Source: an archaeon (GTDB taxonomy: Archaea > Iainarchaeota > Iainarchaeia > Iainarchaeales > DTGL01). From it: DNA of 64,000 bases. Made by a program: the position numbers and the translations under genes. Shown piece after piece: positions 43,782-64,000 of the stretch (position 1 is its first letter; each line of letters opens with the position of its first letter). The notes below the pieces were generated by a model, which was given only the letters and a program-made list of their open reading frames with translations, was not told the origin of the DNA and ran no database searches. Where the stretch lies: assembly GCA_029258755.1 (NCBI GenBank), contig JAPDKC010000009.1:46967-110966 (forward strand). The letters are read 5' to 3'.

Positions 43782-43787
43782 CTGTCT

Positions 43788-44190: not shown

Positions 44191-44194
44191 TACA

Positions 44195-44449: not shown

Positions 44450-44515
44450 CGAATCACCTATATGATGCTAAATAGAAAAGTTAATAAGATTTTCTTATTT
44501 GTAAGAAAAGCACAA

Positions 44516-45206: not shown

Positions 45207-46172
45207 ATGGTTTTCTTGATGAAGAAGCTGTTAGCGCTTGTTGGCATAGCTTTGTTTGCACTTATTTTGCTCAGTATAGATTTGAATAAAATGCTAGCGT
45301 TTCTATCGAAAGCGGATCTAACGCTTATTGCTTTTGCAGTATTTATTTTGATCTTAACCATCGCGATCAGATGCGCAAAATGGTTTTTAATACTGAGGCA
45401 ACAGGGCATTGAGCTTAGCTTCTGGAAGGCGTTCAAATATTATTACATTGGGATTGTTTTAGGCACGTTCACGCCTGGGCGCATAGGGGATTTTATAAAA
45501 GCGCTTTACCTGAAAGAGCATGGCTTAGCAAAGGTTTTCGCTTGCGTGCTTGTAGATCGCTTAGCGGATATAGGCGTATTATTTTTTACAGGAATATTTG
45601 CTAGCATGCTTTTCTCCCTTTATTTCGGCATCGAAATCTTTTCCTCTGCAATGCTCCTGCTGCTCATTGTGCTGTTCTGCCTTGCAGCTTACATTTTCCT
45701 CAACGAACCTCTCTTAAAGAAGCTCCTCAAACCGTTCTATAACTACCTAGTTCCTGCAAGATTTAAGGGGCAGTTAAAGCAGGGCTTTGGTTCCTTTATG
45801 GAAACGAGTTATTCGATTCTGAAATCAAAGAGGTTGATAATTGCTGTGGTAGCAATAAGCTTCGCTTCTTGGGCGCTCTCAATCTATGCTGCTTACCTAA
45901 TAGCCCTAGCTCTAAACCTAAATGTTTCTTTAAGCTTTCTCTTCCTTGTAATCCCAGTCGTTATGCTTGTTATATTGATTCCGATAAGTATTTCAGGAAT
46001 AGGCACAAGGGACGCTAGCACAATACTTCTGTTTTCACTTATTGGAATTGCAGCAGAACAAGCGTTAGCGTTCTCGCTACTTTTCTTCTTTTCCTCTCTT
46101 GTTGTAGCTGCTTTAGGAATACCGCTTTTTATGAGCGAAAAAATAGAACTAAATATTTTTGCCTCGACCTAA
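45207..46172 (+). CDS. UPF0104 / lysylphosphatidylglycerol-synthase-TM-like (flippase-like) membrane protein
   Basis: About 8 TM helices and the conserved TPGRIGDF motif. Confidence 0.5.
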   Translation: MVFLMKKLLALVGIALFALILLSIDLNKMLAFLSKADLTLIAFAVFILILTIAIRCAKWFLILRQQGIELSFWKAFKYYYIGIVLGTFTPGRIGDFIKALYLKEHGLAKVFACVLVDRLADIGVLFFTGIFASMLFSLYFGIEIFSSAMLLLLIVLFCLAAYIFLNEPLLKKLLKPFYNYLVPARFKGQLKQGFGSFMETSYSILKSKRLIIAVVAISFASWALSIYAAYLIALALNLNVSLSFLFLVIPVVMLVILIPISISGIGTRDASTILLFSLIGIAAEQALAFSLLFFFSSLVVAALGIPLFMSEKIELNIFAST

Positions 46173-47777: not shown

Positions 47778-47835
47778 TTTGTAACTAAAATAGTTACAAA
47801 TATTTTTTAAATTTTTTGTAACTAAAATAGTTACA
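47778..47835 (+). promoter_or_regulatory. Two direct copies of a 21-nt element, each an 8-3-8 palindrome (TGTAACTA-aaa-TAGTTACA): putative AbiEi operator
   Basis: TTTGTAACTAAAATAGTTACA sits at 47778-47798 and again at 47815-47835. The second copy overlaps the ATG of the downstream gene. Confidence 0.6.
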
Positions 47836-48464
47836 TGAATAAAAAGTTGAAAATATATGCCTACTTGTGGAAATTGTTTGCAGATGAAGTATTTTCAATA
47901 AGAGAGTTTGAACAGGCATTCTATGCCCCAAATGCGAGAAAAACATTATGTGATTTGTGTAAAGAAGGGTTTGTTATAAGGGTAGGCAGAGGACATTACA
48001 AAGCGGCAAAACCTGTTGAGTTTTTAAACAATTTAATCTGCCAAAAAAACCCATACGATTTGCCAAACAAAAGCAATTTACCATATGCATTTGCTGATAA
48101 GGATGCTGTTGTTATCTGGAGCAATGGCTACTACTGGACAGGTTTTAAAGCAGGTTTTTTGCCAATTATTATTGAGGTAAGGCAAAGGGATTTGAAAAAA
48201 TGGCAGGAATTTTTTAAGAAAAATCGTGCTGAATATTTTGTTGAGGGTGAAAAACCTAAGGAAACATTTGTTGGCACTGTGTATATTTTAAGGCCTGTAA
48301 AAGAGGTTGAAGCGGAAAAAAGAGGGGCTTATTCAGTAATGCCCTTGAAAAAAACTATCGAATTCTGCAAAAGAAACAAGTACTTATTTGAACCAGTGTT
48401 AGAATATTTAAGCAAGAAGTATCGCATGCGTTTAGCAAAGCAATATAGCTATATTAATAGGTGA
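47835..48464 (+). CDS. abiEi: AbiEi-like antitoxin (wHTH transcriptional regulator) of a type IV TA system
   Basis: N-terminal wHTH with RVGRGHY, a 4-nt overlap with the downstream nucleotidyltransferase, and the operator repeats upstream. Confidence 0.5.
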   Translation: MNKKLKIYAYLWKLFADEVFSIREFEQAFYAPNARKTLCDLCKEGFVIRVGRGHYKAAKPVEFLNNLICQKNPYDLPNKSNLPYAFADKDAVVIWSNGYYWTGFKAGFLPIIIEVRQRDLKKWQEFFKKNRAEYFVEGEKPKETFVGTVYILRPVKEVEAEKRGAYSVMPLKKTIEFCKRNKYLFEPVLEYLSKKYRMRLAKQYSYINR

Positions 48465-49165
48465 TGCGTTTGTTTCTGGGGCTTTTGAAAAGAGAAAAAG
48501 AAATAATGAAGCTTTTGAAAGAGATTGTAAAAAGAAAAAGTTTTGTTGTAATTGGTGGCTATGCGGTAAATGCATTCACCCAGCCAAGATTTTCTCTTGA
48601 TCTGGATATCGTTGTCGATAAAGAAGATTCTGCATTTTTTCGAAAGTTTTTGAGAGAGAAGGGTTTTTCAAAAGTAGCGGAGTTTAAGGAACTTCCTTAT
48701 AAAGGAACTTTTGAAAGATTTGAGAAAAAGCTGGAAACTGGCAGCATTTCGGTAGATTTGCTTATCGGAGAGGTAGCAAGCAGGCAAACCGGAGCGAGCT
48801 ATTCTTACGAATATTTGAAAAAATACAGCAGGGTGAGAAACATTATAGGCATGTCTGAACGTGTCAGAGCGCGCGTAGCTGATGCAGAGTTGCTGATCGC
48901 ATTAAAGATAAACTCTGCTAGAAATGTGGATATAAGAGATGTATTTATGTTAGCAGGTACGAAGGTGCGACTGGAGATAATAAAAAAACATTTGGAAAAA
49001 GTGAATAAGAAAAAGCTGAAAGAGAATCTGAAGAAAATAAAAAAGGCAATTAACGAAAAGCGATTCAGAGATTCTTTGCAAGGATGCTTTGGCATTGTTG
49101 ATGATAAAACATTTGAAAGAAACAGGAAAAAGCTCATGAGAATTCTAAACGCGCTCTCCACTTAA
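48461..49165 (+). CDS. abiEii: AbiEii-like nucleotidyltransferase toxin
   Basis: VIGGYAVNAFTQPRFSLDLDIVV matches the AbiEii/DUF1814 motif (GG.A......R.S.DlD). Confidence 0.55.
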   Translation: MMRLFLGLLKREKEIMKLLKEIVKRKSFVVIGGYAVNAFTQPRFSLDLDIVVDKEDSAFFRKFLREKGFSKVAEFKELPYKGTFERFEKKLETGSISVDLLIGEVASRQTGASYSYEYLKKYSRVRNIIGMSERVRARVADAELLIALKINSARNVDIRDVFMLAGTKVRLEIIKKHLEKVNKKKLKENLKKIKKAINEKRFRDSLQGCFGIVDDKTFERNRKKLMRILNALST

Positions 49166-49725: not shown

Positions 49726-51411
49726 CTATCGAATCTTATAGAGCTTTATACTTCCATACTCAAGTACTGGCTTTTCTTTTAACTTAACTGGGAAATATTT
49801 CTCGTCAATTACCACGTATTCTACATTCAAATCATATATGCATTCCACACATTTCGTTTGCAGGATTTTTTCACGTAATTGTTTTTTTCTCAGCACTTCT
49901 TGCCAAGCTGCATTATGCCAAACGATATGCTTAACAGCTGGCAAAAAGAAACCACGAGTAACATCAAATGGAATCTTATTGGAAAATTCTGCTATCTTTG
50001 AAGAGCCTGTCGTAAGGAAAAGCGTTTCCTTAAGAGCTACGTCGTACTCCTTAAATCTAAAAGCAAAGCTAGCCTGCTCTGCTGAAATCTTGCTTCCAAA
50101 TCTAAGTTTAGTGAGATAGCCAGAAGAAAAAAACGCAAGCAAACAAAGAATAACAATAAGTACTTTTACCCACTTCTCAAATTCTTTGGTTTTGAATTGA
50201 ATTTCGGAAAGAGTTAAGCCACCAAACAGGACTGCACCCAAACCAGCAAACTCCATTGGAACATTGGAAGAAGGATACTTCTTTAGGAAAAGGTAGAAAT
50301 AAAGTAGTATAAAAACAATAATTATTGTTAACGCAAACAATTTTTGCTTTGAGTAATTCCTTTTATTAAGCATCCAAAAGAACCCAATAACAACAACAGC
50401 CAGCGGAACCCAACCAAGCCATAAAGCGACAGAAATTAATTCTTTACATAAGAGGGTTAGCGTTACTTCAGCAAGCTTGCTTTGAGCAAAAAGACCTGAA
50501 AAAGAAACAGAATAAACTATCATAAAGGAAGGTACCGCTAACACGAGCGCTGGCAGAGTTTTCAATATTGGAATAAACTTTTCCCTATAGAACAAAATAT
50601 AAATCAGGGAAAAAATTGCAGCATTGAAAAATATGCCTGCATGTACTATAGCGAGCGCTGGCAGGAAAAGCAAACAGAGCTTATTTTTCCTTAAAAAGAA
50701 AATAAAATAAAAGAAAAACAAGGTTGTTGCTAGCAGTCTTGGCCAAATACCAAAAAACATTTCTTGATAAACCATCTTGGTGCCAACAAAGAGCAATGCT
50801 GAATAAAGCCCAGCTTTTTCAGAGGCAAAAAGTTCCCTTGCAAAAAAATAAATTAAAATAACTTGTAGTGATGCGAAGAAAACACCAAAAAACCAAAGCA
50901 CTAAATAATCTGGAACAAAGAAAAATATATCTACAAAAAGCTTTGCAAACAAATGAAAACCAAAATTGTAGGTGAACGATATTCCTGAATACGGCTCAAA
51001 TGTTTGAGGTATTTTCTCGTTCATCTGAAGGACACGCACCATAATTGTGTGAAAAGCATCATTTGAAGCTGGGTAAAAGGGGTGGAGCAAAAGCAAGGGA
51101 TGTGCACAGAGCATTGCAACAATAATTGAAAGCAAAAAAACTTCCCCGCACGGTTTTTCAATTTTGCCTAAAAAGTTTTTAATTAAAAAATAAGAAATAA
51201 CACACGAAGTGATGAGAATTATAGGCGTGTTTAGAAAAAACAGACCTAGCCAAACTGAAGAAACAACAACAACACCAGTAAATACTAAAAACCAGAAAAC
51301 TATTTTTAGTAAAACTTTATCAATATTCCTCAACTTAATAGACATAAATTCCGCCTGCGCAAACGTTTTCTTCCCTAAGCAAAACGAACCTGCCCAAAGG
51401 AGGTATCTCAT
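49726..51411 (-). CDS. Large polytopic membrane protein, GT-C-like glycosyltransferase candidate
   Basis: 561 aa with at least 12 TM helices and a C-terminal soluble domain. Its neighbourhood is glycan-biosynthesis genes. Confidence 0.35.
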
Positions 51412-52558
51412 TAAAGTTTTCTAGCACTAATGCTTTGTCACATTCTATAAGCACTTTGCCAACCTCCGTTTCGTTAAGCGTTTTGGCCTCTTTTTCTATT
51501 ACTCTTAAATCAGCTGAATCTATGCGTTCATAAATGCGCTTTATTTTGCATACTCTTTCCTGGGTTGCACATCTTAAGCAAAGCTCTTTATTAATCTGTA
51601 AAGGCTCTCTGGCAAGCCAAAATATGTTTGCAACAAATTCCTTTTTTATTTCTGGCTTCTTTCCTGAGCAAGCAATTTCGCCTCTAGAAACGCTTGCGTT
51701 AGTTGTTACGCCTATGCTTTCGCCAGCAACTGCTTTGCTTTGCGTTTTACCGAAAACCTCTATAGAAAGTATTTTTGCCTCTATGCCTGAGGGATAAAAT
51801 GTTACTTGTTGACCTGCAAAAATCGTACCTGATTCAACTCTTCCTATAAAAATTTTTTTGCCCGCTCTTTCTAAAACGCCTTGCACAGCATATCTCAAGC
51901 TTTTATCTGCAAGCGTCTCCGAAACTTGCAAAGAATCCAACGCTTCAAGCAAAGTAGGGCCTTCAAACCAAGTCATGTTTTCAGAGGATTTCACTACATT
52001 ATCTCCAAGCTTTGCAGATATTGGAATATAGTAGCTTGCATGCAGCCCCAGCTTTGAAAGTAGGTTTTTAGTTTCCCCTAGTACTTCAACATACTTTTCT
52101 TTTTTGTATGAGACTAAATCCATTTTATTTAGAGCAACTATTATGTTCTTTAGTCCAAGCATCGCTAACATATAAGCGTGCCTTTTTGTTTGTTCCTCAA
52201 CACCTTTACTTACATCTATTATGAGTACTGCCGCTTGCGCTTGCGCAGCGCCTGTAATCATATTGCGGATAAATTCTTTGTGCCCGGGAGCATCGATTAT
52301 AGTATAGCAAGCTTTTGGAGTTTTGAAAAAAAGCTGTGCTGTATCAATAGTCATTTCCTGTTCGCGTTCTTCTTTAAGATGGTCCATCACAAACGCATAC
52401 TCAAAAGTTTTACCAAGCTTTTTGCATGTCTCTTTGATTTCTTCTATCCTTTCTTTCGGTAATGAACCTGTATCATAGAGGAGTCTACCTATAAGCGTGG
52501 ATTTCCCATGATCTACATGGCCTACAATTACTATAGGCATGCTTTTCATTTCAAACAC
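51335..52558 (-). CDS. cysN: Sulfate adenylyltransferase subunit 1 (CysN-type GTPase)
   Basis: [19 protein letters not shown] and NKMDLV. The RRH-like motif and NKMDLV favour CysN over EF-1alpha. It lies directly upstream of cysD. Confidence 0.6.
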
Positions 52559-53389
52559 CTACATATAACCTAAAGAACGCAACTTTTGCATCATATAAGC
52601 TTGTTCTTTATCTTGAGCTCTGCCTGCGCGCTCAGCTTCCTTAGTGTGCTTTAACTCTTCAATAATCTCATCTATTGTGCTAGCATTAGATTCTATTGGC
52701 TTTGTACAAGGCATACAGCCAAGGCTTCTATAACGCTTGCCATTCTTAGCGAAATACATTGGATTCACAGGAATCTGCTCGCGCTTTATATATTCCCATA
52801 TATTGAGCTCTGTCCAATGCAACATTGGATGCACTCTTATATGTGTTTCGCCATCGGCTTGAGTATTAAACTGATCCCAGAGTTCTGCAGGCTGTTCTTT
52901 ATAGTTCCACCTAAAGCTTGCATCCCTAGGGCTGAAATACCTTTCCTTAGCTCTAATGCCATGCTCATCTCTTCTTATACCAAGAAGCAAAGCCTTAAAT
53001 CCATACTTTTTTATTGCTTGCTTAAGCGCTTCTGTTTTTAGTGCTGTACAACAGGCAAGCTTTCCTTTGCTCGGATTCATACCTTGCTTCAGAGCCTCTT
53101 CATTCCTAGCTACAATAAGATTCAGGTTCCACTCTTTCGCTAAGCGATCTCTAAACTCATACATTTCCTTAAATTTAAAGGTTGTATCTATATGAAGAAC
53201 TGGGAAAGGTATTTCGCCATAAAACGCTTTTCTGCAAAGATAAAGCAAGGTTGTTGAATCCTTGCCAACACTCCAAAGCATTGCTATGCGCTTAAATCTT
53301 TCATATGCTTCTCTAATTATATATATGCTCTTGCTTTCCAGCTCATCCAAATAATCCATGCTATCACCTAAGCAAGGATGTTCCATCAA
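52559..53389 (-). CDS. cysD: Sulfate adenylyltransferase subunit 2
   Basis: PP-loop SVGKDSTTLLYL of the PAPS-reductase/CysD family. Confidence 0.8.
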   Translation of the reverse strand: MMEHPCLGDSMDYLDELESKSIYIIREAYERFKRIAMLWSVGKDSTTLLYLCRKAFYGEIPFPVLHIDTTFKFKEMYEFRDRLAKEWNLNLIVARNEEALKQGMNPSKGKLACCTALKTEALKQAIKKYGFKALLLGIRRDEHGIRAKERYFSPRDASFRWNYKEQPAELWDQFNTQADGETHIRVHPMLHWTELNIWEYIKREQIPVNPMYFAKNGKRYRSLGCMPCTKPIESNASTIDEIIEELKHTKEAERAGRAQDKEQAYMMQKLRSLGYM

Positions 53390-55112
53390 GCTGTTCGAAA
53401 GGAATATTAAAGTAATGCAAAGCTGTTGGCGTTAAGTCAAGGATGCTAGCGTTTTTTAGAGCTAGCGGCTCTGAGCAGAATATTATACCAGCGTTATGTT
53501 CAGGCAAAAATGGGCCAATATGGTCAGCGCTCCATTTGTTTTTATTGTCATAAATAATTTCATTTGAAGAAACGCTAGCGATAGCTGTTTCTCTCGATGC
53601 TCTGAAGCCTGGCCTATATATAGGCACTAAATCCGGCATATCTTTATTACCTTCATAAGCTTCCTCGTTGGTTTTCACATCAATAAATGGTTTCATATGA
53701 TCGAAGCTGAATTTCAGTAATGCTTGCTTAATGTCTTCCTTAATGCTTTCCGCATCCTTTTCGCTTACTATGCCGTATCTTTCCCTGCCTTTTAAATTGA
53801 TATAAATGGAACCGAATCCTAAAGCATACGCTTGAGTGCGACTCCAATCGATATCCGCAAAGCTGCCACATTCAGCTTTATCTTTAAATGCTAAAAATCC
53901 TTCCTCAAGCAGTATTTTATTAACCTGTACGCTTTTTCTGTAAGTTTGGAACCCATGATCAGAGATTACAAAAAGCAAAGCATCGCTAAGCAGAGGCATT
54001 AATTCAGCAAGCTTTTCATCAAGCCAAATATATGTTTTTTCAATTAGTTCAGCATAGTCACTTTCTTCATACATCGCATGCTCTTTATCTATAAAACGCC
54101 AAAATAAATGCTGCACGCGATCCACTGGAAAGAAATCTATTGCAAAGTAGTTCCATTTAGTTTTTTGGAGTAGGTGCTTCGCTATCCTAAATCTTGTTTC
54201 GAATGTATAGCGCATATCCTCAAGCCAGGTTTGTTCATCAATAAGCTCTTCTTTCAGCCCATAAACATCCGACTCAAAGCTTAAGCTTTTAAATACACCA
54301 AATTGTTCTGCAAGCTTTTTAGCAAGTGTTTCAGGATAGGCTATGCTAGCTGCCGGGTTAAAAGGAGAATAAGCTATTGGTGAAAGATAAACAGTTAGCT
54401 CGTTTTCATTGTTTTTAAGGATCTTAAATCTGCAAACTCCTTCTACATTAGCAAACTTAACTCTAAACCATTTGCTCCAGCAACCTTCTTTCAGCATATC
54501 TTTCTGTCCTTGTAATTCTATTACAATCTTCTCTCCTTTTCTTTCCAAAACTGCTTGTACTGTTTCATTATCCGGCCCTTCTATTGCCACAACAATTCTT
54601 TCTGCAAGTTCTATTTTCTTAACATCTGCCTTTTGTTCATCGCTTGCGGTTGAATATATTGTAGGCAAGCCTTGCGTGCCCCTCAAATCAGGCGTACCCA
54701 TGCCGCTAAGCACAACCCCCTTTATTTCTTCAGCTGGAAATGTAACTGGGATGAAAAGCGCTAGCGAAAAAAGCTTAGCTTCGCTTAGGTAATGCCAGCA
54801 AGCCTTTCCTTTGATCCTCTTTTCAAAAACTTTTTTGCCGGAAACAATTTTTTCATTAACCATTCCTATATCAAGCTGCATTGTTTCTGGATCACGAACA
54901 ATGAAGTCAAATATGTAATGCTTCGCTGGTGTTAAACCAGTTTGAAAAGAGCTCCAAGCAACAGGGCTTTGCGATACCAAAGTTGTGTTAAGCTTTGAAT
55001 ATGCTCCCTTATCTTTTAGCTCCGCTAACGTTGGCAGATTCCCTTCTTTAAGCAATTTATCCACTATACTTGGCTCTGCGCCATCTATACCAATTACTGC
55101 AAACCTTTTCAT
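53364..55112 (-). CDS. Alkaline-phosphatase-superfamily enzyme (type I phosphodiesterase/nucleotide pyrophosphatase, PF01663-like)
   Basis: ISDHGF metal-binding motif; 582 aa. Confidence 0.6.
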   Translation of the reverse strand: MKRFAVIGIDGAEPSIVDKLLKEGNLPTLAELKDKGAYSKLNTTLVSQSPVAWSSFQTGLTPAKHYIFDFIVRDPETMQLDIGMVNEKIVSGKKVFEKRIKGKACWHYLSEAKLFSLALFIPVTFPAEEIKGVVLSGMGTPDLRGTQGLPTIYSTASDEQKADVKKIELAERIVVAIEGPDNETVQAVLERKGEKIVIELQGQKDMLKEGCWSKWFRVKFANVEGVCRFKILKNNENELTVYLSPIAYSPFNPAASIAYPETLAKKLAEQFGVFKSLSFESDVYGLKEELIDEQTWLEDMRYTFETRFRIAKHLLQKTKWNYFAIDFFPVDRVQHLFWRFIDKEHAMYEESDYAELIEKTYIWLDEKLAELMPLLSDALLFVISDHGFQTYRKSVQVNKILLEEGFLAFKDKAECGSFADIDWSRTQAYALGFGSIYINLKGRERYGIVSEKDAESIKEDIKQALLKFSFDHMKPFIDVKTNEEAYEGNKDMPDLVPIYRPGFRASRETAIASVSSNEIIYDNKNKWSADHIGPFLPEHNAGIIFCSEPLALKNASILDLTPTALHYFNIPFEQLDGTSLLR

Positions 55113-55120
55113 AATAGCAC

Positions 55121-55366
55121 CTACTTCTTGCCAGCTAAATAGGGCAGCGTAACAATAGCTTTGCCTGTTTTTGCACTAGCGATTGCCTGCCTCAAAACAT
55201 ACCGTATCCATTCGCTAGGGCTTGAAAAGCCCGTTCCTTTTATTTCCTCCTTTATCTGCTCATAAAGCTCTTTTGGAATAGTAATAGTTACCTTTTCCTT
55301 TACCATAAGAGGAATTAAATGCAAACACTTTAAATAACTTATGTTTGAATTGCAATAACAATGCAA
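55121..55366 (-). CDS. Ribbon-helix-helix DNA-binding protein
   Basis: KVTITIPKELYEQIKEEI ... SEWIRYVLRQ. The likely start is MVKEK. Confidence 0.45.
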   Translation of the reverse strand: MHCYCNSNISYLKCLHLIPLMVKEKVTITIPKELYEQIKEEIKGTGFSSPSEWIRYVLRQAIASAKTGKAIVTLPYLAGKK

Positions 55367-56608
55367 TTATAATGAATATGCGGTTTTATTCTTTTTCTCG
55401 CACATTGCGAGTATCTCTTTTACTCCGAAAACCTTCATGTTTTTTGGCTTTTCTGGAACGATTTTCTTGTCTGGTACAATGAGCACTTTTTCGCACCTCT
55501 TAAAATTCGCCATTTTCTCCTCAATTGCATACAGCTCCTTCTTTCCCAATTTATTTTTCCATTTCACCTCAGCAACCAAAGTAAGCTTTTTGAAATCTCC
55601 AAGTGCAATATCAACCTCCAAATGCGGTTTATTTATAATAAAACATCTTTTTTTGTATAGCTTGGATAAAAGCTCTCTAAAAAAGTTTTCGATATGGAAA
55701 GGCAGTTTTTCAAAAAAGTATTTCTCATCCAATTCACTTTCAGAAAAGTTATATTTTTCATCTAGGTAGTAGTACAGATCAATCATAGGAGATGATACAA
55801 AATAGGAGTATCTTCTGCTTCCGTATTCTGGGATTCTCTTTATTAAACCCATGTCCAAAAGAGTTTTGATATAAGGGGTTATCTTTCCGTGCTCGCTTGT
55901 TTTAATGATGTTTTTGGAGTGTAAAAAATCAGCTATTTTCCCTATATGCCGCTTTCCCACGGCAATGGCTCTAATAATACCCTCATACTTTTCGCTCAGA
56001 GTTCTCTCTTCTTCTTCAAATATTTCCCCAACCAAGCTCGGAACAGTCAGCTTAAATTCGTTAATTATATTTGCCAAGTTTCTGCCCAAAAAACCTAGCA
56101 AAATCGGCTCTCTGAGATAAACGGAATATTCGACAAGCTTTTTTGGGTCTTTTATATATTTGCTTAAATTTACTAAAATATCCCTTTCATCAATGGGATT
56201 TATTCTGAGTTCATGTACGAGGCCAAGAATAGGTGATTTTCGTCCCATTATTTTTTTTGCAAGATGAAGTGTAGAGGTAACCAAAATAATCTTCTCCGGG
56301 CTCCTGTAATGGAGAAAATCTAAAAACTCATCTGGCAATCTGTGGAATTCATCCACCACAACAATTCTTTTTTCTTCTATGAGTCTATCCAGAATTGCGA
56401 TGAAAACATCATAATCCAGGCTTTTTTTAGCATTCTCATAGAATACGCCACCGCCTCTTTTTACAAAAAAATAATGGGCTTTTTTGAAATAATTTTTAAC
56501 CAAAAAAGTCTTCCCCGTTTTCCTTCGCCCATATATGAGAATCCTCCTAGGAAGCTCGGATAGTTTGCGTATTTCCGTGTTTCTAATTATGATAATTTTA
56601 TTTATCAT
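55367..56608 (-). CDS. Archaeal ATPase (PF01637-type AAA plus DUF234)
   Basis: Walker A GRRKTGKT, Walker B VVVDEF, and a DUF234-like C-terminus. Confidence 0.7.
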   Translation of the reverse strand: MINKIIIIRNTEIRKLSELPRRILIYGRRKTGKTFLVKNYFKKAHYFFVKRGGGVFYENAKKSLDYDVFIAILDRLIEEKRIVVVDEFHRLPDEFLDFLHYRSPEKIILVTSTLHLAKKIMGRKSPILGLVHELRINPIDERDILVNLSKYIKDPKKLVEYSVYLREPILLGFLGRNLANIINEFKLTVPSLVGEIFEEEERTLSEKYEGIIRAIAVGKRHIGKIADFLHSKNIIKTSEHGKITPYIKTLLDMGLIKRIPEYGSRRYSYFVSSPMIDLYYYLDEKYNFSESELDEKYFFEKLPFHIENFFRELLSKLYKKRCFIINKPHLEVDIALGDFKKLTLVAEVKWKNKLGKKELYAIEEKMANFKRCEKVLIVPDKKIVPEKPKNMKVFGVKEILAMCEKKNKTAYSL

Positions 56609-56634
56609 AACTTAAATTATCAAATACAATATTT

Positions 56635-58020
56635 TTAATATTTTCCGCCCCTAGAACAAACCCCTAACACAATTCTCTTCACAGCTCTCTTAAAAACAGA
56701 GGCAAAAAATCGCAAATCCTTAAAGCGCGGAATTATTTCTATTTGTAAGCCAACACTTCTCTGTTTAAAGTAGAGGAAGGCTCCAGCAAGCAAATTGGTT
56801 ATTACGCGCACTATAAGCAAGCCATAAATGGAATAATTTGCTATCAAAAAATAACCAAACGAAAGTGTAACAAAAAACGTTAGAAATAAACTTTTTGCAA
56901 TCATGTCAGCTCTATTAATGCTTCTGTATGCGTTATTTAAGAACTGAATACTAGAGCTAAGGAAAAGGACTATGAATAAAGGAAGTAAGGGATAGGCGTT
57001 AATAAAATTTGGGAAAAGAACGATCAACAATATTTTTCCAATAACCAAAATTACCAAGCCCAAAAGCAAACCCAATATAAGCGAGAATTTAATGCTCAGT
57101 GAAACAAGCCTACTTAAAGCTTTTTTATTGCTTGCTTTCTCGCTTGCAAAAGGAAGCATAGTTTCGCTTAGAGCGGCGATAGGCATCTCCACAGCATATG
57201 AAACAATACGCTCAGCAATATAATACAGACCTATTAGCACATTAGAAACAAAAAGAGCCATATAGAAGAGAAGCACCTGCATATTAAGCTTCTTCAGCAA
57301 GCTAACCACAAATATGTTTTTCACATATTTCTTCACTTCTTTGCCAGCAACTTTTTTATCCTCAAACGCGCAGCTATGGAAAAAATAATAAAGGTAGAGC
57401 AAAGAAGCTAGCGCTAGTGAAAACACTTTGGCAATTATTAAAGCTTCCACTCCTTGATGCAATATAAGAACAAAAAATGACGCTAAGCTCAAATTTGCAA
57501 AACTTTCAACAAGTGAAACTTTGAGCACTTTACCGAAGCTTTTTAATCCTTTAAAAAGGGCTTCGAAGAGTAAAAACAGGGGAAATACAAGGAACAAAAA
57601 AGCAGCATACCTAAAAATAGCCAGATTTCCTTTTTTAAGCAATAAAAAAATCCATTGGGGAAAGAAAAAGAACAGCGCAAAAAGGATGAAAAAAAGTCCT
57701 AACAGAATCTTTATAAATTTAACAAAAAGCTTCTTTGCTCTATACTTAGGAACAAAAACGATTAAGGTATTTCCTAAAGGCTCCGTACCAAAAAGGTAAA
57801 CAAGATTGCCTACAAACGCCAGCACAAACATAGCTAAGCCATATTTTGCAGGTCCTAGAGCATTAGCAACTATATATGTGTAAAGAAAACCAAATATAAG
57901 CAGAGCTAGCCTTTTACTATAAGAGTACACACTACTTTTAAAAAATAACCAGGAAGTCTCCGCTAGCATGAGATCACTCAATAAAAAGACACTTCCAGTA
58001 TTAAAAACATGTTGGTGCAA
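56635..58020 (-). CDS. Polysaccharide biosynthesis flippase (Wzx/MOP family)
   Basis: 461 aa with 12-14 TM helices and the typical flippase size, in a glycosyltransferase cluster. Confidence 0.5.
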   Translation of the reverse strand: MHQHVFNTGSVFLLSDLMLAETSWLFFKSSVYSYSKRLALLIFGFLYTYIVANALGPAKYGLAMFVLAFVGNLVYLFGTEPLGNTLIVFVPKYRAKKLFVKFIKILLGLFFILFALFFFFPQWIFLLLKKGNLAIFRYAAFLFLVFPLFLLFEALFKGLKSFGKVLKVSLVESFANLSLASFFVLILHQGVEALIIAKVFSLALASLLYLYYFFHSCAFEDKKVAGKEVKKYVKNIFVVSLLKKLNMQVLLFYMALFVSNVLIGLYYIAERIVSYAVEMPIAALSETMLPFASEKASNKKALSRLVSLSIKFSLILGLLLGLVILVIGKILLIVLFPNFINAYPLLPLFIVLFLSSSIQFLNNAYRSINRADMIAKSLFLTFFVTLSFGYFLIANYSIYGLLIVRVITNLLAGAFLYFKQRSVGLQIEIIPRFKDLRFFASVFKRAVKRIVLGVCSRGGKY

Positions 58021-58035
58021 AGTTCTTCTAGTTTT

Positions 58036-58629
58036 TTATTTACGAGCAATCACAAATAGTTCTGGGGCAAAATCCAAGTTAGTGAAGTAGGAAATAAATT
58101 TTTTGAATATATTAAACTTACTTGGCGAAATTCTTAGGACATCAATCTTCTTAAAGCCAGAGAGCTTTAGTAACGCATATAATGTTCTTGGTGTATACGC
58201 TTGCTTATGCGTAACATCATCAAAAAAGAATCCTATCGGGAAAAAGGGGTTATTTGTTGTAAGAATAAAGTTGTTTGTTATGGTGGCGATTTTTTTAAAA
58301 TAGCTCAGCGCTTCATCCAAAGATAAATGCTCAATCACTGCAAACATAACAACCCAATCAAATTTTTCATTTATTTTGTGTATATCATAATAATCATGCT
58401 TATATGTTTTGTCTACGTCCATAGATTTATAAACGCATTTTTTAGCCTTTAACTCTTTTCCAAACCAGCGATTTCCAGCACCAATATCCAAAACTTTAGC
58501 CTTTTCTGGAATTATTTCTAAAGCCAATTCAAGCGATTTTTTGTTTGTAAGGGGGACTTTTCGGAAATCAAGCCAATCCAAGACTTCTTGCCTATACTTA
58601 TTATACTCCGCCCATTTCATTAACACCAC
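58036..58629 (-). CDS. Class I SAM-dependent methyltransferase
   Basis: VLDIGAGNRWFG motif I and MFAVIEHL motif. Confidence 0.6.
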   Translation of the reverse strand: MVLMKWAEYNKYRQEVLDWLDFRKVPLTNKKSLELALEIIPEKAKVLDIGAGNRWFGKELKAKKCVYKSMDVDKTYKHDYYDIHKINEKFDWVVMFAVIEHLSLDEALSYFKKIATITNNFILTTNNPFFPIGFFFDDVTHKQAYTPRTLYALLKLSGFKKIDVLRISPSKFNIFKKFISYFTNLDFAPELFVIARK

Positions 58630-59746
58630 CCAAACCCTTTATTAATTTAAGCGCTCTTTTTAGAAGCAAGTTCCTTTCATATCTTCTCTTTATAAACTCT
58701 TGTCTCATTTTACGACTTTTCCTTAGCTTTTTAATGTTTTGTATGCTGTGCGCTAAAATACGTTGAAATTTATACCAACTATAAGCATAAGCCCCTATAA
58801 AAGAATTCTTTCTATAAAACTCCCTTAACGCTCCTTTTCTAGGCCCTTTTATAAGTACCCAAAGTCCACAAGCCAAATAATCAAAAATCTTTACGGGCAA
58901 ACTTGTATAATATTTTTCAGGCCAAGGAACAATGCCTATATCGCCTGCGGAAAGATAGCGATACATCCTATTATAAGGAACATTTTTAACAACCCGTATT
59001 CTTTCGCGCTTCTTTGCTTTTTTTAACATTTCTTCTAACTGCCATTCGTTTGCTTTCTCAATAGAAATCACTAGCAAAAGGAAAACATCTTTTTTATTGA
59101 GCTTATCAAAAGCTTTAATCAGTTTGTCTATTTCTTCATCTCCAACGCTACCAGCATATATAAGCACGGTTGCATTTGCTGGAATGCCCAATTCTTTTCT
59201 CGTTTCTTTTCTCGCTTTTTCAGAGTAATAAATGATATTTGAGTCAGAACCATTTGGAACTAAAATACATTTTTTCGGATTCAGATTATAACGTTTTATT
59301 TCTAACTTTCTATCCCACTCAGTCAAGAAAAAAAGTAAATCGGCATGCTTATATGTGAATGCCCTCAGCAAAAAATAAATTCTTCTTTTTATTCCTTTTA
59401 TTGAGAATAGGCTTGGCAAAGGTTCGAATACAAAAGGGTCATCCTTTGCGTCCAAAACAAATCTTTTACCTGAAAGCTTACATGCAACGAGAACAAAGAA
59501 ATTATGGGTCAATGGTGGTGATGTGCCTAAAACAACATCGAAATTACCAGCGAAAATGCGCTTTATTAGCTCAAATATACTACCGTACCGGTAAATCCCT
59601 TTTACTTTTTTAACTCCTGCCCGCTTAGGAGCAAAAATTTTTACCTTACAGCCCTTTTCTTCAAAATAATCTCTAAATGCATTTACTCTTATTACTGCTG
59701 CTCCCCTTTCGGGATCGGCATAAGGCGTTACTATTGCGATCTTCAT
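58601..59746 (-). CDS. Glycosyltransferase (GT4-like)
   Basis: The C-terminal half has a GT-B fold with an EX7E-like region. Confidence 0.5.
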   Translation of the reverse strand: MKIAIVTPYADPERGAAVIRVNAFRDYFEEKGCKVKIFAPKRAGVKKVKGIYRYGSIFELIKRIFAGNFDVVLGTSPPLTHNFFVLVACKLSGKRFVLDAKDDPFVFEPLPSLFSIKGIKRRIYFLLRAFTYKHADLLFFLTEWDRKLEIKRYNLNPKKCILVPNGSDSNIIYYSEKARKETRKELGIPANATVLIYAGSVGDEEIDKLIKAFDKLNKKDVFLLLVISIEKANEWQLEEMLKKAKKRERIRVVKNVPYNRMYRYLSAGDIGIVPWPEKYYTSLPVKIFDYLACGLWVLIKGPRKGALREFYRKNSFIGAYAYSWYKFQRILAHSIQNIKKLRKSRKMRQEFIKRRYERNLLLKRALKLIKGLGGVNEMGGV

Positions 59747-60696
59747 TTTTGATCCTGTCTGTTTTTCTTATACCACTCAATAAACTGCTTTATTCCTTCC
59801 TCGATACTTACTTTTGGTTCCCAACCAAGCAGGCGTTTAGCTTTGCTTATATCTGCATACGTAATTGGCACATCCCCTTTTGGAACAGGCTTTTCAATAA
59901 TCTTTGCTTTCTTGCCAAGATTCTGCTCAATGAGCTCTATAAGCTTATTTAACTGAACTGGCCTGCTGTTGCCAAGATTTATTATCTCAAAATCTAAAGG
60001 CCTTTCTAGCGCAAGCATTATCCCTTCTACTATATCATCAACATAGGTGAAATCTCTTTGCATATTGCCTTTTCCATAGCGTTCGATCGCTAAACCTTTT
60101 GCAATTTTGTCTGTAAATTTGTAAACAGCCATATCTGGTCTGCCACGAGGCCCATAAACAGTAAAAAGCCTCAAGCAAGTAGTTGGTATAGCATAATTGC
60201 AAGCATAAACTTGGCATAATAGTTCTGCAGAGCGCTTTGAAGCAGCGTAAGGGGAAATAATATTAGCTATTGCTTGCTCCTCGCTAAAAGGCGGTTTATT
60301 TAAGCCATATACGCTAGAAGAAGAAGTAAAAACAAACTGTTCAACATTATGTGCTTTAGCTAGCGCGAGCAGATTAAGCGTGCCTAAAACATTTACGTCA
60401 AAATAAAGTTCTGCTTGTTCAAATGAGGCTCGAACGCCTGCACGTGCAGCTAAATGAACAATTTTCTCTACATTGTATTCTTCAAAAATTTTTTTCATCT
60501 CCTTTTTATCTCTTATATCAGCCTCTATAAGAGTAAACCGCTCATCTTTAAGTGCCTGTGAAATATTTTCTCTCTTTATTGCAGGATCATAATAATCGTT
60601 AAAATCATCCACGCCAATAACTTCATGACCGTTAGCTAATAAGCGTTCGGTTAGGTGCGAACCTATAAAGCCTGCACAGCCGGTAACAAGAATCAT
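59743..60696 (-). CDS. NAD-dependent epimerase/dehydratase (UDP-sugar 4-epimerase/decarboxylase family)
   Basis: ILVTGCAGFIGSHL Rossmann motif and YAASK catalytic motif. Confidence 0.85.
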   Translation of the reverse strand: MILVTGCAGFIGSHLTERLLANGHEVIGVDDFNDYYDPAIKRENISQALKDERFTLIEADIRDKKEMKKIFEEYNVEKIVHLAARAGVRASFEQAELYFDVNVLGTLNLLALAKAHNVEQFVFTSSSSVYGLNKPPFSEEQAIANIISPYAASKRSAELLCQVYACNYAIPTTCLRLFTVYGPRGRPDMAVYKFTDKIAKGLAIERYGKGNMQRDFTYVDDIVEGIMLALERPLDFEIINLGNSRPVQLNKLIELIEQNLGKKAKIIEKPVPKGDVPITYADISKAKRLLGWEPKVSIEEGIKQFIEWYKKNRQDQK

Positions 60697-60706
60697 GCTA
60701 AAAACC

Positions 60707-61831
60707 TCATTTAATTAATTCATTATATATCTTTAAAACCTTCTCTGCGCTTCTTTTCCAGCAGAGCTGTTTAGCTTTTAGCTTTGCATTTTTACTAAAT
60801 CTTGCTCTTAGCTTTCTATCCTTTAGTTTTCCCAGAGCTTCTTTTAGCTCTTTAACACTTCTTTTCCTCACCAAAAACCCATTGAAACCATTTTCAATTA
60901 TTTCCTCTGCTCCAGTTCCTTTGCACGCAATACAGGGCAAGCCAAAGCAGCAGGCTTCCGCATATACTAAACCAAAACCCTCATAAAGGGAAGGCACACA
61001 TAATATATCTGCCATACTATAGTATTTTGTCAGTTTATGTCTATTAAGATAACCTGTAAACATAACTCTATTGGGAAGTTTTGCAAGCGTTTCAGTTTGT
61101 GTATTTAAACCCACTACAATTAATTTTGCTTCAGGTAACTTGCATAACGCCTCAGTTAAATAGCTCAAACCTTTTAGCCAAGCAGAGTTGCCAACCCAAA
61201 GCACAATAAAATCGCTCGCGTTAAAGCCGAGCTGTTTCCTTACTGCAATTTTATTAAACTTTTTGAATTCCTTGCAATCAACAGCATTTGGTACTACTAC
61301 AGCATCAATGCCATAAAACTTTTTGGCTTCTTTTTTAACGGTCTTTGAAACGCATGTAAAGGTATCAGCCAGCTTTATAGCAAACCAATTCTTAAAGATT
61401 GAAGCTTTAAGATAAAGGAATGTAGTGAGGCTAAAGCTTGTTCTTTTTAACTTTAGCTCTTTCTTCCATTCTTCATAGATCGCTTTATCTAGGCCGTGTA
61501 AGTGCACTACTATCTTGTATTTTTTGCGCAATAATAGACGAGCTATCACAGCATCAAAAGCTGCTTCTGGTGTATGCGAATGCACAATATCATAATCCTT
61601 ATCTTTGATAAAATTGGCGAAAAACAAAGCTGTTAATGGTGTGTGATGTAAAAAATGCAACGTGCCTTTTAAAGGCTGGAGATAATTAAACATCGCTTGC
61701 GGCGCATCATAGCCAAAAGCATAATCTACTTGCACACCTTTTTCTTCAAGAGCTTTGCCTAAGGAGAGCACAACTCTGCTTACGCCAGCACTTTTAGAAT
61801 AAGCACCATTGTAATGCATAAGAACGCGCAT
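60707..61831 (-). CDS. Glycosyltransferase family 4 (GT-B)
   Basis: C-terminal PSLYEGFGLVYAEACCFGLPCIA is the GT4 EX7E motif region. Confidence 0.8.
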   Translation of the reverse strand: MRVLMHYNGAYSKSAGVSRVVLSLGKALEEKGVQVDYAFGYDAPQAMFNYLQPLKGTLHFLHHTPLTALFFANFIKDKDYDIVHSHTPEAAFDAVIARLLLRKKYKIVVHLHGLDKAIYEEWKKELKLKRTSFSLTTFLYLKASIFKNWFAIKLADTFTCVSKTVKKEAKKFYGIDAVVVPNAVDCKEFKKFNKIAVRKQLGFNASDFIVLWVGNSAWLKGLSYLTEALCKLPEAKLIVVGLNTQTETLAKLPNRVMFTGYLNRHKLTKYYSMADILCVPSLYEGFGLVYAEACCFGLPCIACKGTGAEEIIENGFNGFLVRKRSVKELKEALGKLKDRKLRARFSKNAKLKAKQLCWKRSAEKVLKIYNELIK

Positions 61832-61877: not shown

Positions 61878-63092
61878 TCAGGTTTTATGTAGGAGCCATT
61901 TCCATAGAGGAATAACTTTTATTATTCTTCCATCATCTCTAATTGTTTCTTCTGTATCCCAAGTAACAATGGTTGGTGTTCTAATTTTAAATCTTTTCAT
62001 CGCCTCTCGCAAGGTTTTTTTCTTTTCTTCCGTATCTTCATACGTAACTTCAAGCAGATGTTTTTCACCATTTTTAGATGCTAAAAAATCTATCTCATTC
62101 CCTTTCTTATCCATATAATAATTTACCTTAAATCCTCTGCGCAGAAGCTCGATGAATACTATATTTTCCATTTTTCTACCTATATCAAGGGTTTTTTCAA
62201 ATAGATGAGCAAAACATGTATCAATTAAATATATCTTTTTTGGGGAAACCATTCTCTCTTTCACCGAATAAGAAAACTTCTCTACAACAAAAGCTAAGAA
62301 CGAGCTTTCGATAGCACGAATATATTTTATAATAGTTTTGGTATCGATGTTCACCCCTAAAGAGCTAAATGTTCTTTTTAGAGAATTATAGGTCATTCTG
62401 TTTGAATAGTTTGCCAAAACAAAATAGAAAACCTCCTGCAAGTCCTCTAGGCCTTTGACTCTGAATTTCTCGGCGATATCCCTGTAAAACACAGTTTCCA
62501 AAATAGATACAATTTTTTCCCTAGATTTATAAAGCCACACCTCTGGAAAACCTCCCCAACGCAAATACTTCTCTAAAAGATTGAACATCTTGCCCCTCTC
62601 TCTGAAAGTTTTCAACTCAAAATTAATAATTTCTCCAAAGGATATGGGAAGAACGAGCTTGGAAAGATATCTCCCCCTTAACCTATAAGGAATCTCTGAG
62701 GAATATAACGCAGAAGAAGAACCTGAAACAAAAATATAAAAATCTTTAACATCGTGCAACCATCTGAGGTTGGCATCCCAATCTTTCCATTCTTGCACTT
62801 CATCAAGGAAAAGATTTATTCTTCCTTCAGGGTATGCTTTTTTCGCTAGTTCAGCAAGTTTTCTTGCTTTAACCTCTCTAAACCCGGGTTCATCAAAAGA
62901 TATATAAAGAGCTTGCTTCCGATTTTCCAGAAGGGTTTTAACTTTTTTGAGCATTAAAAAAGTTTTTCCCACGCGCCTTGGCCCTAAAAGAGCCACAATA
63001 TCCGGTGCTTGTCTTAAGGAGATTTCTCTTTTTATTTCTTTTACATATTTTAAAGCACCTATATATTCTTCTGTAATCTCTTTTAGATCCAT
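61878..63092 (-). CDS. AAA ATPase (PF13173) with DUF4143 domain
   Basis: Walker A LLGPRRVGKTF, Walker B LFLDEVQ, and a DUF4143-like C-terminus. Confidence 0.7.
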   Translation of the reverse strand: MDLKEITEEYIGALKYVKEIKREISLRQAPDIVALLGPRRVGKTFLMLKKVKTLLENRKQALYISFDEPGFREVKARKLAELAKKAYPEGRINLFLDEVQEWKDWDANLRWLHDVKDFYIFVSGSSSALYSSEIPYRLRGRYLSKLVLPISFGEIINFELKTFRERGKMFNLLEKYLRWGGFPEVWLYKSREKIVSILETVFYRDIAEKFRVKGLEDLQEVFYFVLANYSNRMTYNSLKRTFSSLGVNIDTKTIIKYIRAIESSFLAFVVEKFSYSVKERMVSPKKIYLIDTCFAHLFEKTLDIGRKMENIVFIELLRRGFKVNYYMDKKGNEIDFLASKNGEKHLLEVTYEDTEEKKKTLREAMKRFKIRTPTIVTWDTEETIRDDGRIIKVIPLWKWLLHKT

Positions 63093-63118: not shown

Positions 63119-64000
63119 TTAAACAAGCAAATGCTTGTTTCCTATCTCAACGTTTTCTAAGCCGGCTTTTTTGCATACCTGCAGGCACTTTAATGCGAAT
63201 TCTTTTGATGTAAAACCCATATCGCTGAACTTATACTCTGGATGAAACGCCAACAGTATGTAAGGAATTGATTCATCTAAGCTTGCTATAAAGCTGGCGA
63301 TATTCTTTATCTCTTCCAAGGTTACATAGTGTGGCACTAGCAAGGTTGATGCATACAGAAAGTAAGGCTCCCTTCTTTCTTTATGAAACTCTGCAAGCAT
63401 CTCGAAGTTTTTATAGCTTACCTTATTTGATATGCCAGTTATCGCAATGTTTAGCCTTTCATCCCAAAACTTTAGATCTATCTTTATGCAACCTCCACTC
63501 TGCATGCTTAACTCAGCAAATCTTTTTAGAAGTGCTGGATTAGCGTTCCCATTGCTTTCCATACAAATCCTTAAAACAGGTTTTTTAAGCTCTATCATAA
63601 GCTCGCTTGCCTTAATTGCATGCATTATTTGCACATCCGGCGTGCCACCAAAGAAGCATACACAATTTACATCGCTTCTCATGGCGGCTTCTGCAAGTGA
63701 GCTAGCAGAAACTAAAGGCCCAAGCTTTTTTGTGAGATTCTTAAAGAACCAGTTCTGGCAGAACAAACAATTGAAGTTGCATGCGCCATAGAAAACAGCC
63801 AGGTTATAACCTCTCTCAGAGCTCGCTGGGCAGAAGTGGCTGGCTACGCAATTGGTGGGCAGTGGATCATAATAGTATTCAAGCAGTCCTTTTTCAGGTG
63901 TTCCTGCAAGCCTAATTAGTTTGTTGTTTGAATTCTTTACCAAACCACAATAGCCAAATGAATTTTTAGGTATTTTACATTCGTTTCCACAAGTATTGCA
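63119..64000 (-). CDS. Radical SAM activase-like protein (PflA / AmmeMemoRadiSam-type); N-terminus runs past the window end
   Basis: CNFNCLFCQN is the CxxxCxxC motif. The ORF-track start at 63943 is a TTG. The reading frame stays open to position 64000, encoding an N-terminal Cys-rich stretch (...CGNECKIPKNSFGYCGLV). Confidence 0.55.
   Translation of the reverse strand, partial: CNTCGNECKIPKNSFGYCGLVKNSNNKLIRLAGTPEKGLLEYYYDPLPTNCVASHFCPASSERGYNLAVFYGACNFNCLFCQNWFFKNLTKKLGPLVSASSLAEAAMRSDVNCVCFFGGTPDVQIMHAIKASELMIELKKPVLRICMESNGNANPALLKRFAELSMQSGGCIKIDLKFWDERLNIAITGISNKVSYKNFEMLAEFHKERREPYFLYASTLLVPHYVTLEEIKNIASFIASLDESIPYILLAFHPEYKFSDMGFTSKEFALKCLQVCKKAGLENVEIGNKHLLV

Follow-up and report, generated by a model that had tools for sequence, protein, structure and literature searches.

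In the 64,000-nucleotide stretch of archaeal DNA analysed here (the window), positions 49726-61831 hold eleven head-to-tail open reading frames (ORFs), all on the minus strand and either overlapping or no more than 46 nt apart, in which genes for glycan assembly stand together with the sulfate-activation genes cysD and cysN and with a gene for a protein of the alkaline-phosphatase superfamily, hereafter AlkP. The window is archaeal by its TFIIB gene and an intron-containing tRNA, the latter detected by Rfam alone; its G+C content is about 38% and its best protein matches are metagenome-assembled genomes (MAGs) of Candidatus Diapherotrites and other DPANN lineages. Gene identities were assigned by profile scans with Pfam and NCBIfam, the scores being read against the family cut-offs. 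In the order of transcription, the run encodes a GT4 glycosyltransferase, a sugar-nucleotide enzyme of the short-chain dehydrogenase/reductase (SDR) type, a second GT4, a methyltransferase, a Wzx-type flippase, an AAA-type ATPase, a ribbon-helix-helix (RHH) protein, AlkP, CysD, CysN and a polytopic protein of 561 aa. An earlier note on this DNA had listed the same co-directional minus-strand genes and all eleven ORFs stand at the coordinates given below, though the epimerase sits between the two GT4 genes and not after them. As two further co-directional genes, for an ATPase and a radical SAM (S-adenosylmethionine) enzyme, lie upstream of the run, the glycan cluster may continue beyond the end of the window; radical SAM genes recur in related clusters of other genomes (L075, L081 and L089, other loci being cited by such numbers throughout). 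The features are as follows:

49726-51411, minus strand: GT-C-fold polytopic membrane protein, 561 aa (no family match; assigned at the level of the fold)
51335-52558, minus strand: probable short-form CysN, 407 aa (GTP_EFTU, D2 and eEF1A_C domains)
52559-53389, minus strand: CysD, PP-loop subunit of ATP sulfurylase (NF003587, 368 bits; PAPS_reduct, 169 bits)
53364-55112, minus strand: AlkP, alkaline-phosphatase-superfamily protein, 582 aa (PF01663, 106 bits; cut-off 23)
55121-55366, minus strand: CopG-type RHH protein (RHH_1, 26 bits)
55367-56608, minus strand: AAA-type ATPase, 413 aa (AAA_14, a weak match of 28.7 bits; cut-off 27)
56635-58020, minus strand: Wzx-type flippase for lipid-linked oligosaccharide (Polysacc_synt_3, 40.8 bits; Polysacc_synt, 35.3 bits)
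58036-58629, minus strand: SAM-dependent methyltransferase (Methyltransf_23, 38.5 bits)
58601-59746, minus strand: GT4 glycosyltransferase (Glycos_transf_1 and Glyco_transf_4)
59743-60696, minus strand: NAD-dependent SDR sugar-nucleotide epimerase/dehydratase (GDP_Man_Dehyd, 232 bits; Epimerase, 218 bits)
60707-61831, minus strand: GT4 glycosyltransferase (Glycos_transf_1, 121.7 bits; Glyco_transf_4, 81.5 bits)
61878-63092, minus strand: AAA_14/DUF4143 ATPase, co-directional and 5' of the run (Pfam; carries a PF01637 match)
63119-63943, minus strand: radical SAM enzyme, co-directional and 5' of the run (Pfam)

Regarding sulfate activation, the identity of CysD is secure from its sequence, as the protein scores 368.4 bits against NF003587 (cut-off 195) and 243 bits against the CysD of P. 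syringae (1zun_A) and contains the SVGKDS PP-loop, while staying below the stricter models TIGR02039 (285.5 vs. 396.6 bits) and NF009214 (287 vs. 413 bits). For the 407-aa GTPase, profile scores alone leave the assignment ambiguous: it reaches 333.3 bits against the CysN model TIGR02034, just under the cut-off of 336.1, and 348-362 bits against the EF-1alpha models, the cut-offs of which (502-540) are both missed by about 140-190 bits, and among solved structures archaeal EF-1alpha (287 bits) scores above the CysN of P. syringae (226 bits). Its nearest 120 relatives in a large protein database are of some 400-430 aa, show 50-57% identity beyond the closest species and are hosted by Diapherotrites, Woesearchaeota, Aenigmarchaeota, Altiarchaeota, Doudnabacteria of the candidate phyla radiation (CPR), Omnitrophica, Planctomycetota and Nitrospinae. 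Most of these relatives are unnamed, the named ones being called sulfate adenylyltransferase large subunit, GTP-binding protein or 50S ribosome-binding GTPase, of which the first is the specific name. The G1 (GHVDHGKS), G3 (DAPGH) and G4 (NKMD) motifs are intact, cysD and cysN follow each other without intergenic gap in the window and are adjacent or nearly so in all 17 other CysDN-type loci, and CysN is of 397-446 aa with no APS-kinase domain across all CysDN-type loci (APS, adenosine 5'-phosphosulfate). A translation factor EF-1alpha is ruled out by the failure at both EF-1alpha cut-offs together with the membership in a short-CysN clade encoded next to cysD; the call of CysN made in the earlier note is upheld on the same grounds, and the GTPase is best read as a short CysN devoid of an APS-kinase domain.

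AlkP belongs to a family that bears the JGI name "predicted AlkP superfamily phosphohydrolase/phosphomutase". In an alignment of 21 diverse homologues its two-metal site is complete (D10, D331, H335, D385, H386, D530 and H531) and the Ser/Thr at position 49, S49 in the window, aligns with the nucleophile of nucleotide pyrophosphatases/phosphodiesterases (NPPs). Over 132 family members, including the 486-aa paralogue and the haloarchaeal relatives considered below, D10, D331, H335, D385, H386, H531 and Ser/Thr49 are kept and W53, N398, N439 and R443 are invariant, while D530 is a feature of the long forms that the 486-aa paralogues and the haloarchaeal relatives lack. Where NPPs proper have T-F-P-N-H, AlkP has S-P-V-A-W, so that the oxyanion Asn is replaced by Ala52, followed by the invariant Trp53; because the T-F-P-N-H motif with its Asn is absent, AlkP is classed by its sequence as a member of the superfamily and not as an NPP orthologue. 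The AlphaFold model (pLDDT 92) has an NPP-like fold with a family-specific, all-beta insertion of about 130 residues (roughly 130-260), and its best structural matches are NPPs and the phosphonoacetate hydrolase PhnA, at some 12-18% identity; a sequence search of solved structures gave only weak N-terminal matches, to ENPP1 and PhnA. Of note, the AlkP of the window matches PF01663 only, the PF00884 members being separate neighbours in other loci. In archaeal AlkPs the first metal ligand comes nine residues after the start and there is no signal peptide, hydrophobic leader or transmembrane (TM) segment; for the lack of a hydrophobic leader and this early start, archaeal AlkP is predicted to be cytoplasmic, that is, in the same compartment as APS. 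The bacterial AlkPs linked to CysDN are longer by about 80 residues at the N terminus, and this added stretch contains a TM segment.

The linkage between AlkP and sulfate activation was followed in a scan of the genomes of 185,579 species, seeded only with the AlkP alignment, which yielded 80 loci with flanks of up to 10 kb; neighbours were identified by tblastn with the window proteins, and all ORFs of the loci were clustered and the commonest neighbour families annotated. The relatives are all on MAG contigs and the ORF calls of the loci are mechanical. Sulfate-activation genes lie within 10 kb of AlkP in 36 of the 80 loci, and they do so by way of two non-homologous ATP sulfurylases. On the one hand, cysD and/or cysN are near AlkP, mostly directly adjacent, in 13 loci (two archaeal MAGs, eight Omnitrophota, one Planctomycete and two unclassified bacteria). 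On the other hand, 23 loci hold a Sat-CysC fusion (PF01747 and PF01583), usually with CysQ (PF00459), in Terriglobia, a marine acidobacterium (L059), Latescibacterota (L070) and Acidiferrales (L046). AlkP and the sulfate-activation genes are arranged in no fewer than eight different ways, in several phyla and two domains (DPANN, Omnitrophota, Planctomycetes, an unclassified bacterium, Terriglobia, marine Acidobacteria and Latescibacterota). An unrelated gene would be expected within 10 kb in 1-2% of the loci, as we estimate from genome sizes, and the linkage is far beyond chance. Look-ups seeded with CysN gave a PF01663 gene next door in two of three cases; the order is RHH-AlkP-CysD-x-CysN in an archaeon (L085) and CysD-CysN-PF01663 in a CPR Doudnabacterium (L084). 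In addition, a TauE/SafE permease for sulfur oxyanions lies within the cassette in L088, L004, L038 and L054. In a rough, distance-based neighbour-joining tree, the AlkP of the window falls in an archaeal clade of which five of the six members are next to CysDN, and sulfate-linked AlkPs are scattered over deep branches of the family. As for the PF00884 proteins encoded near AlkP in the bacterial loci, none of 53 carries the formylglycine motif C/S-x-P-x-R, which is replaced by T-x-P-S-H; canonical formylglycine sulfatases are ruled out by this replacement, because of which the proteins look like transferases rather than sulfatases.

Several loci are worth describing in their own right. In L074, L032, L040, L065 and some 15 further Terriglobia loci, a conserved block encodes a TM-anchored, Thr-type "sulfatase" (about 810 aa), AlkP (616 aa), an AlkP paralogue (486 aa) and an M28 peptidase; next come CysQ and Sat-CysC, encoded on the other strand, and after them a LuxR regulator. 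This arrangement is a candidate for a version of the system in soil Acidobacteriota that depends on PAPS (3'-phosphoadenosine 5'-phosphosulfate). An archaeal glycan cluster (L082) contains PF01663 genes of 596, 468 and 533 aa with a PF00884 gene, RHH and Wzx, and has no cysDN within 10 kb; P0015 is found on an 853-kb contig as well. Haloarchaeal megaplasmids carry AlkP homologues of 530 aa (25-27% identity) inside glycan clusters, for which no matching model was found in NCBIfam. On bacterial plasmids, the only full-length homologue (23% identity) is that of Mesorhizobium loti (L090, 7983-9851), the neighbours of which are a DegT aminotransferase, a transketolase and two radical SAM enzymes; a tie of AlkP to Nod-factor sulfation through this homologue was considered and discarded, the cluster being free of sulfate genes. 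Lastly, in the archaeal loci L001 (12567-13335) and L085 (7268-7999), cysD is separated from cysN by the insertion of an ORF (243 aa) that resembles LAGLIDADG/HTH homing endonucleases.

A Pfam scan of every sizeable ORF of the 64-kb window returned no APS kinase, sulfite reductase or sulfotransferase domain, nor any APS/PAPS reductase besides the domain family of CysD itself, so that the earlier statement that no sulfate-reduction genes are in view holds for the entire window. When the window and the 17 other loci of the CysDN type were searched by tblastn with bacterial sequences from the AlkP loci (a CysC domain, CysQ and Sat), neither gave a match. In those 17 loci the ORFs are also free of a P-loop motif of the 5'-PSB type, as judged with a crude regular expression. 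The suggestion of a sulfo-sugar, made as an alternative in the earlier note, finds no support, for the SDR scores 58.8 bits against the UDP-sulfoquinovose synthase model NF041015 (cut-off 575), by which a sulfoquinovose route through this enzyme is ruled out; Agl3/SQD1 of Sulfolobus, whose family model the SDR fails by these same figures, also puts sulfur on an archaeal N-glycan but takes it from sulfite and not from APS.

The cluster as a whole is conserved in the relatives L088, L089 and L081. In L088, a relative at 80% identity, the order is GT4, SDR, GT4, two methyltransferases at the position equivalent to that of the window methyltransferase, Wzx, RHH, AlkP, CysD, TauE, CysN, GT2, a homologue of the 561-aa protein and LPG_synthase_TM. 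In L081 and L089, CysD-CysN-RHH-AlkP is set amid GT2 and GT4 glycosyltransferases, sugar-nucleotide enzymes, radical SAM enzymes and Wzx, L089 holding in addition a PF00884 sulfatase-like protein; such a protein is absent from the cluster in the window, L088, L002 and L001/L085. Wzx has orthologues at the matching position in L002 (61% identity) and L088. The synteny of window and L088 extends past the glycan cluster (41745-46172 in the window, 13881-16907 in L088), with genes for a 474-476-aa protein, a methyltransferase and LPG_synthase_TM. The window has an insertion of guaA, an AbiE pair and a phosphoribosyltransferase gene, which separates this block from the GT-C gene.

The 413-aa ATPase separates Wzx from RHH-AlkP-CysDN in the window, whereas in L088 RHH directly follows Wzx. 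By tblastn, it is matched nowhere in L001-L080, the first 80 loci, and, because it is missing from the otherwise syntenic L088 cluster, it is probably an insertion and not a core gene of the pathway. Its earlier label of Arch_ATPase is weak, the PF01637 match belonging to the adjoining ATPase at 61878-63092. The RHH protein, with a core of about 62 aa, is 63-69% identical among the archaeal loci, which is higher than the conservation of AlkP itself; orthologues lie directly upstream of AlkP in L002, L081, L082, L085, L088 and L089, and a distant relative (36%) upstream of cysD in L083. Its true start is probably Met21 at 55306, for a protein of about 61 aa, and a TATA-like TTATTTAAA lies some 27 nt upstream of this inner ATG, which in an A+T-rich genome is weak evidence. 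RHH is presumed to be the regulator of the cassette. A scan for sigma-70 promoters and terminators gave counts no different from those of shuffled sequences, the bacterial model being the wrong one for an archaeon.

The 561-aa protein has only 12 homologues, all Diapherotrites-like, with one at the same position in both L088 and L002, and its true start is likely Met23 at 51345. The earlier description of it as GT-C-like stands at the level of the fold and has no counterpart in Pfam or NCBIfam, where the protein has no match; nor is an STT3 domain or a WWDYG motif found in its sequence. Its AlphaFold2 model (pLDDT 85) retrieves STT3, PglB, AftD, ALG12 and ArnT as top matches in the PDB with Foldseek (probability 1.0), with E-values of 7e-7 to 2e-5 and a TM-score of about 0.5 for STT3/PglB. 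The model indicates a GT-C fold akin to the oligosaccharyltransferases and PglB; as there is no STT3 domain and no WWDYG motif and the C-terminal soluble part is small (only about 120 aa), the protein is not called AglB.

That archaea can bear sulfated surface glycans has been known for some forty years, the N-glycans of Halobacterium being a classical case. Dedicated sulfate activation for the sulfation of glycoconjugates or peptides is likewise well established in bacteria, with NodP/NodQ-NodH in Sinorhizobium, RaxP/RaxQ-RaxST in Xanthomonas and CysDNC-Stf0 in Mycobacterium. As in these systems, CysD and CysN paralogues in the window would serve sulfation and not cysteine synthesis; unlike in the window and the CysDN-type loci, a CysC kinase is there fused to or adjoining CysN, PAPS is the donor and the sulfotransferases are P-loop proteins. 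With the NPP of Xac, ENPP1-7 and PhnA, AlkP shares the two-metal site (D, D/H, D/H, H) and the aligned Ser/Thr nucleophile, NPPs being a family that binds AMP esters; NPPs are secreted, whereas AlkP is predicted to be cytoplasmic, has the beta insertion and stands in a context of glycan synthesis and sulfate activation. The closest precedent comes from Hbt. salinarum, in which the membrane protein Agl30 (VNG1056C) and the soluble Agl31 (VNG1057C), sulfatase-like proteins of the alkaline-phosphatase superfamily encoded in the aglB cluster, were identified as N-glycan sulfotransferases by deletion and by heterologous expression in Hfx. volcanii (Zaretsky et al., mBio 2025, PMC11980604); no sulfate donor, PAPS or catalytic mechanism is mentioned for them in that report. 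Like Agl30 and Agl31, AlkP is a protein of this superfamily encoded in an archaeal glycan-assembly cluster; the pair of a membrane and a soluble protein recalls the TM-anchored bacterial and the soluble archaeal AlkPs, and the sulfation of a dolichol-phosphate-linked glycan has its parallel in the proposed action of AlkP on a lipid-linked glycan. No aglB is found in the window, and the glycan may or may not be an N-glycan. In Hfx. volcanii, the DolP-hexose of the low-salt N-glycan is not sulfated without Agl7 (HVO_2046) (Kaminski et al. 2013, PMC3892788), again a sulfation, defined by genetics, of a lipid-linked archaeal glycan before flipping, as in the pathway proposed here. A 2024 review names no archaeal sulfotransferase, and searches of the literature returned nothing beyond Agl30/31 on sulfotransferases of the alkaline-phosphatase superfamily that use APS and nothing relevant on COG3379.

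Taken together, the locus can be read as a Wzx-dependent surface-glycan pathway with an RHH-AlkP-CysD-CysN sulfation cassette, in which AlkP is the sulfotransferase, a full model that we hold to be slightly better than an even bet. CysD and CysN, driven by GTP, would make APS from ATP and sulfate in the cytoplasm. The cytoplasmic AlkP would then take the sulfuryl group from APS, probably through a covalent sulfo-Ser49 enzyme modelled on the phospho- and nucleotidyl-enzymes of its relatives, and pass it on to a hydroxyl group of the lipid-linked oligosaccharide, itself the product of the two GT4s, the methyltransferase and the SDR. The sulfated glycan would be flipped by Wzx and transferred by the GT-C-fold protein to its final acceptor outside the cell, the small RHH protein regulating the cassette; in Acidobacteriota with Sat-CysC and CysQ, the donor may be PAPS. 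Within this model, we infer the substrate, the acceptor, an attack on sulfur and not on phosphorus, and the use of APS and not PAPS. That CysDN serves sulfation here, and not assimilation, is the part in which our confidence is high. The two proposals of the earlier note at the heart of the model, a glycan sulfation fed by the CysDN of the cluster and the PF01663 enzyme as a possible transferase partner, are both supported short of proof, by the GTPase not being EF-1alpha, by the recurrent linkage of AlkP with two ATP sulfurylases, by the lack of reduction genes, APS kinase and canonical sulfotransferase nearby and by the precedent of Agl30/31 within the superfamily.

A number of points weigh against this reading. 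In 44 of the 80 AlkP loci there is no sulfate-activation gene within 10 kb, many of these loci being on short contigs, and among the 23 Sat-CysC cases, which are not independent, a single syntenic region of Terriglobia predominates, the Terriglobia cases counting as few events. In a Woesearchaeota locus (L083, 6449-9245), cysD, DUF2061, a HIT protein and cysN are followed by a UbiA prenyltransferase, and AlkP is missing; since AMP-X compounds such as APS are substrates of HIT enzymes too, this hints at a different fate of APS in this lineage. Chemically, NPPs normally attack phosphorus, by which APS would be expected to give an AMP-enzyme and free sulfate, and an action on sulfur would be a biochemical novelty for the PF01663 branch; Agl30 and Agl31, for which the evidence is genetic, are of the PF00884 branch. 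Besides, neither an initiating phosphoglycosyltransferase nor AglB is found in the window, and the genome outside the visible 64 kb could hold a gene for APS kinase or for a canonical sulfotransferase.

Among the other explanations, it could be that CysDN feeds glycan sulfation, AlkP having only an accessory role with nucleotides, such as cleaving a pyrophosphate-type bond to pull the sulfurylase or clearing AMP, PAP or APS by-products, and that the true sulfotransferase is another protein, either the PF00884-like neighbour seen in other genomes or the product of a gene outside the window. The nearest folds of AlkP, which are nucleotide pyrophosphatases/phosphodiesterases, speak for such a role, as do the many loci with a Thr-type PF00884 protein, closer to Agl30/31 than AlkP is, and the linkage fits donor use and by-product processing alike. 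However, AlkP is the sole candidate in the clusters of the window, L088, L002 and L001/L085, where the PF00884 protein is missing, Terriglobia already have CysQ for PAP, and inorganic pyrophosphatase is a housekeeping function that seldom needs a dedicated enzyme of 580 aa; we regard an accessory AlkP as unlikely, though it is the strongest of the rival readings.

A transfer of another group by AlkP and the CysD/CysN-like pair is to be considered next, be it of AMP from APS or ATP or a decoration with phosphoglycerol, phosphocholine or phosphoethanolamine, sulfate activation being a mere neighbour in the latter case. NPP-type enzymes do form nucleotidyl-enzyme intermediates, the superfamily relatives EptA and LtaS decorate glycans with phospho-alcohols, the HIT protein that takes the place of AlkP between cysD and cysN in L083 is of a nucleotidyl-transfer type, and some AlkP homologues lie in clusters free of sulfate genes. 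Yet such a transfer does not account for AlkP keeping company with CysQ, TauE and two ATP sulfurylases that are not homologous, and CysD is well above the cut-off of its family, which makes this explanation improbable in our view.

Even less probable is sulfur scavenging, whereby AlkP and the sulfatase-like proteins would free sulfate from organosulfates for activation by CysDN or Sat-CysC on the way to cysteine. Hydrolases of the superfamily do include sulfatases, and the Sat-CysC and CysQ of Terriglobia also serve assimilation. This is countered by the lack of cysH and sir in the window and of cysC in the window and the CysDN-type loci, by the predicted cytoplasmic location of archaeal AlkP, by the PF00884 neighbours being without the formylglycine motif and by the archaeal cassette sitting within glycan-assembly clusters; to our knowledge, DPANN organisms generally do without cysteine-directed sulfate assimilation. 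Finally, a housekeeping cysDN operon that came to lie in a glycan locus by coincidence, conceivable from a single window taken alone, is refuted by the pairing being kept in several phyla of both domains in differing gene orders, and its probability is close to nil.

Some features of the window stand apart from the glycan cluster. The region 5689-17895 resembles an integrated mobile element, with a PrgI-like/TrmB ORF, an ORF like a pilin of type IV secretion systems (9656-9979), genes of the HEPN and DUF3800 families and, adjoining the intron-containing tRNA (17966-18106), a tyrosine integrase (16666-17895); the G+C content is 44-45% at 6-10 kb against about 38% elsewhere. The tRNA, on the minus strand and of 141 nt, scores 48.9 bits with Rfam and was missed by ARAGORN in bacterial mode. 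On the plus strand, 47835-49165 encodes an AbiEii-type nucleotidyltransferase toxin with its upstream partner, between guaA and the phosphoribosyltransferase gene; a similar-looking pair of ORFs, judged by eye and unaligned, lies between cysN and the GT-C gene in L002 (6179-7599), and if it is the same the AbiE pair moves within the neighbourhood. Unrelated to sulfation, the minus strand also holds two tandem RimK-like ATP-grasp genes (27441-29436) and the gene of a 589-aa radical SAM protein with a zinc ribbon of the HMPTM type (19319-21088).

What sets the proposed system apart from the known kind is the PF01663 branch, APS as the likely donor and the spread of the cassette through DPANN, CPR and Omnitrophota. 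AlkP is a second, structurally distinct candidate sulfotransferase of the alkaline-phosphatase superfamily, of which the first archaeal ones were identified only in 2025, and besides a compact, four-gene cassette the locus and its relatives offer a concrete candidate for the donor pathway, namely APS made by CysDN with no kinase nearby or, in Acidobacteriota, Sat-CysC with CysQ. Beyond this locus, the AlkP family might consist of widespread, hitherto unrecognised glycan sulfotransferases that use APS directly through a covalent sulfo-Ser/Thr in a two-metal site of the alkaline-phosphatase type, with no need of kinase or PAPS, and that are portable with CysDN (and RHH in archaea) among the ultra-small archaea and bacteria of DPANN, CPR and Omnitrophota; this generalization is tentative and we lean against it for now. 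Were it true, the missing donor pathway of the haloarchaeal sulfotransferases of the superfamily would be identified. If the proposed reaction takes place, the transfer of a sulfuryl group from APS by an NPP-like enzyme would be a new mechanistic class of sulfotransferases, it would explain why ATP sulfurylase is kept in genome-reduced DPANN, CPR and Omnitrophota that are not expected to assimilate sulfate, and it would suggest that sulfated, negatively charged surfaces are common in these episymbiont-like lineages.

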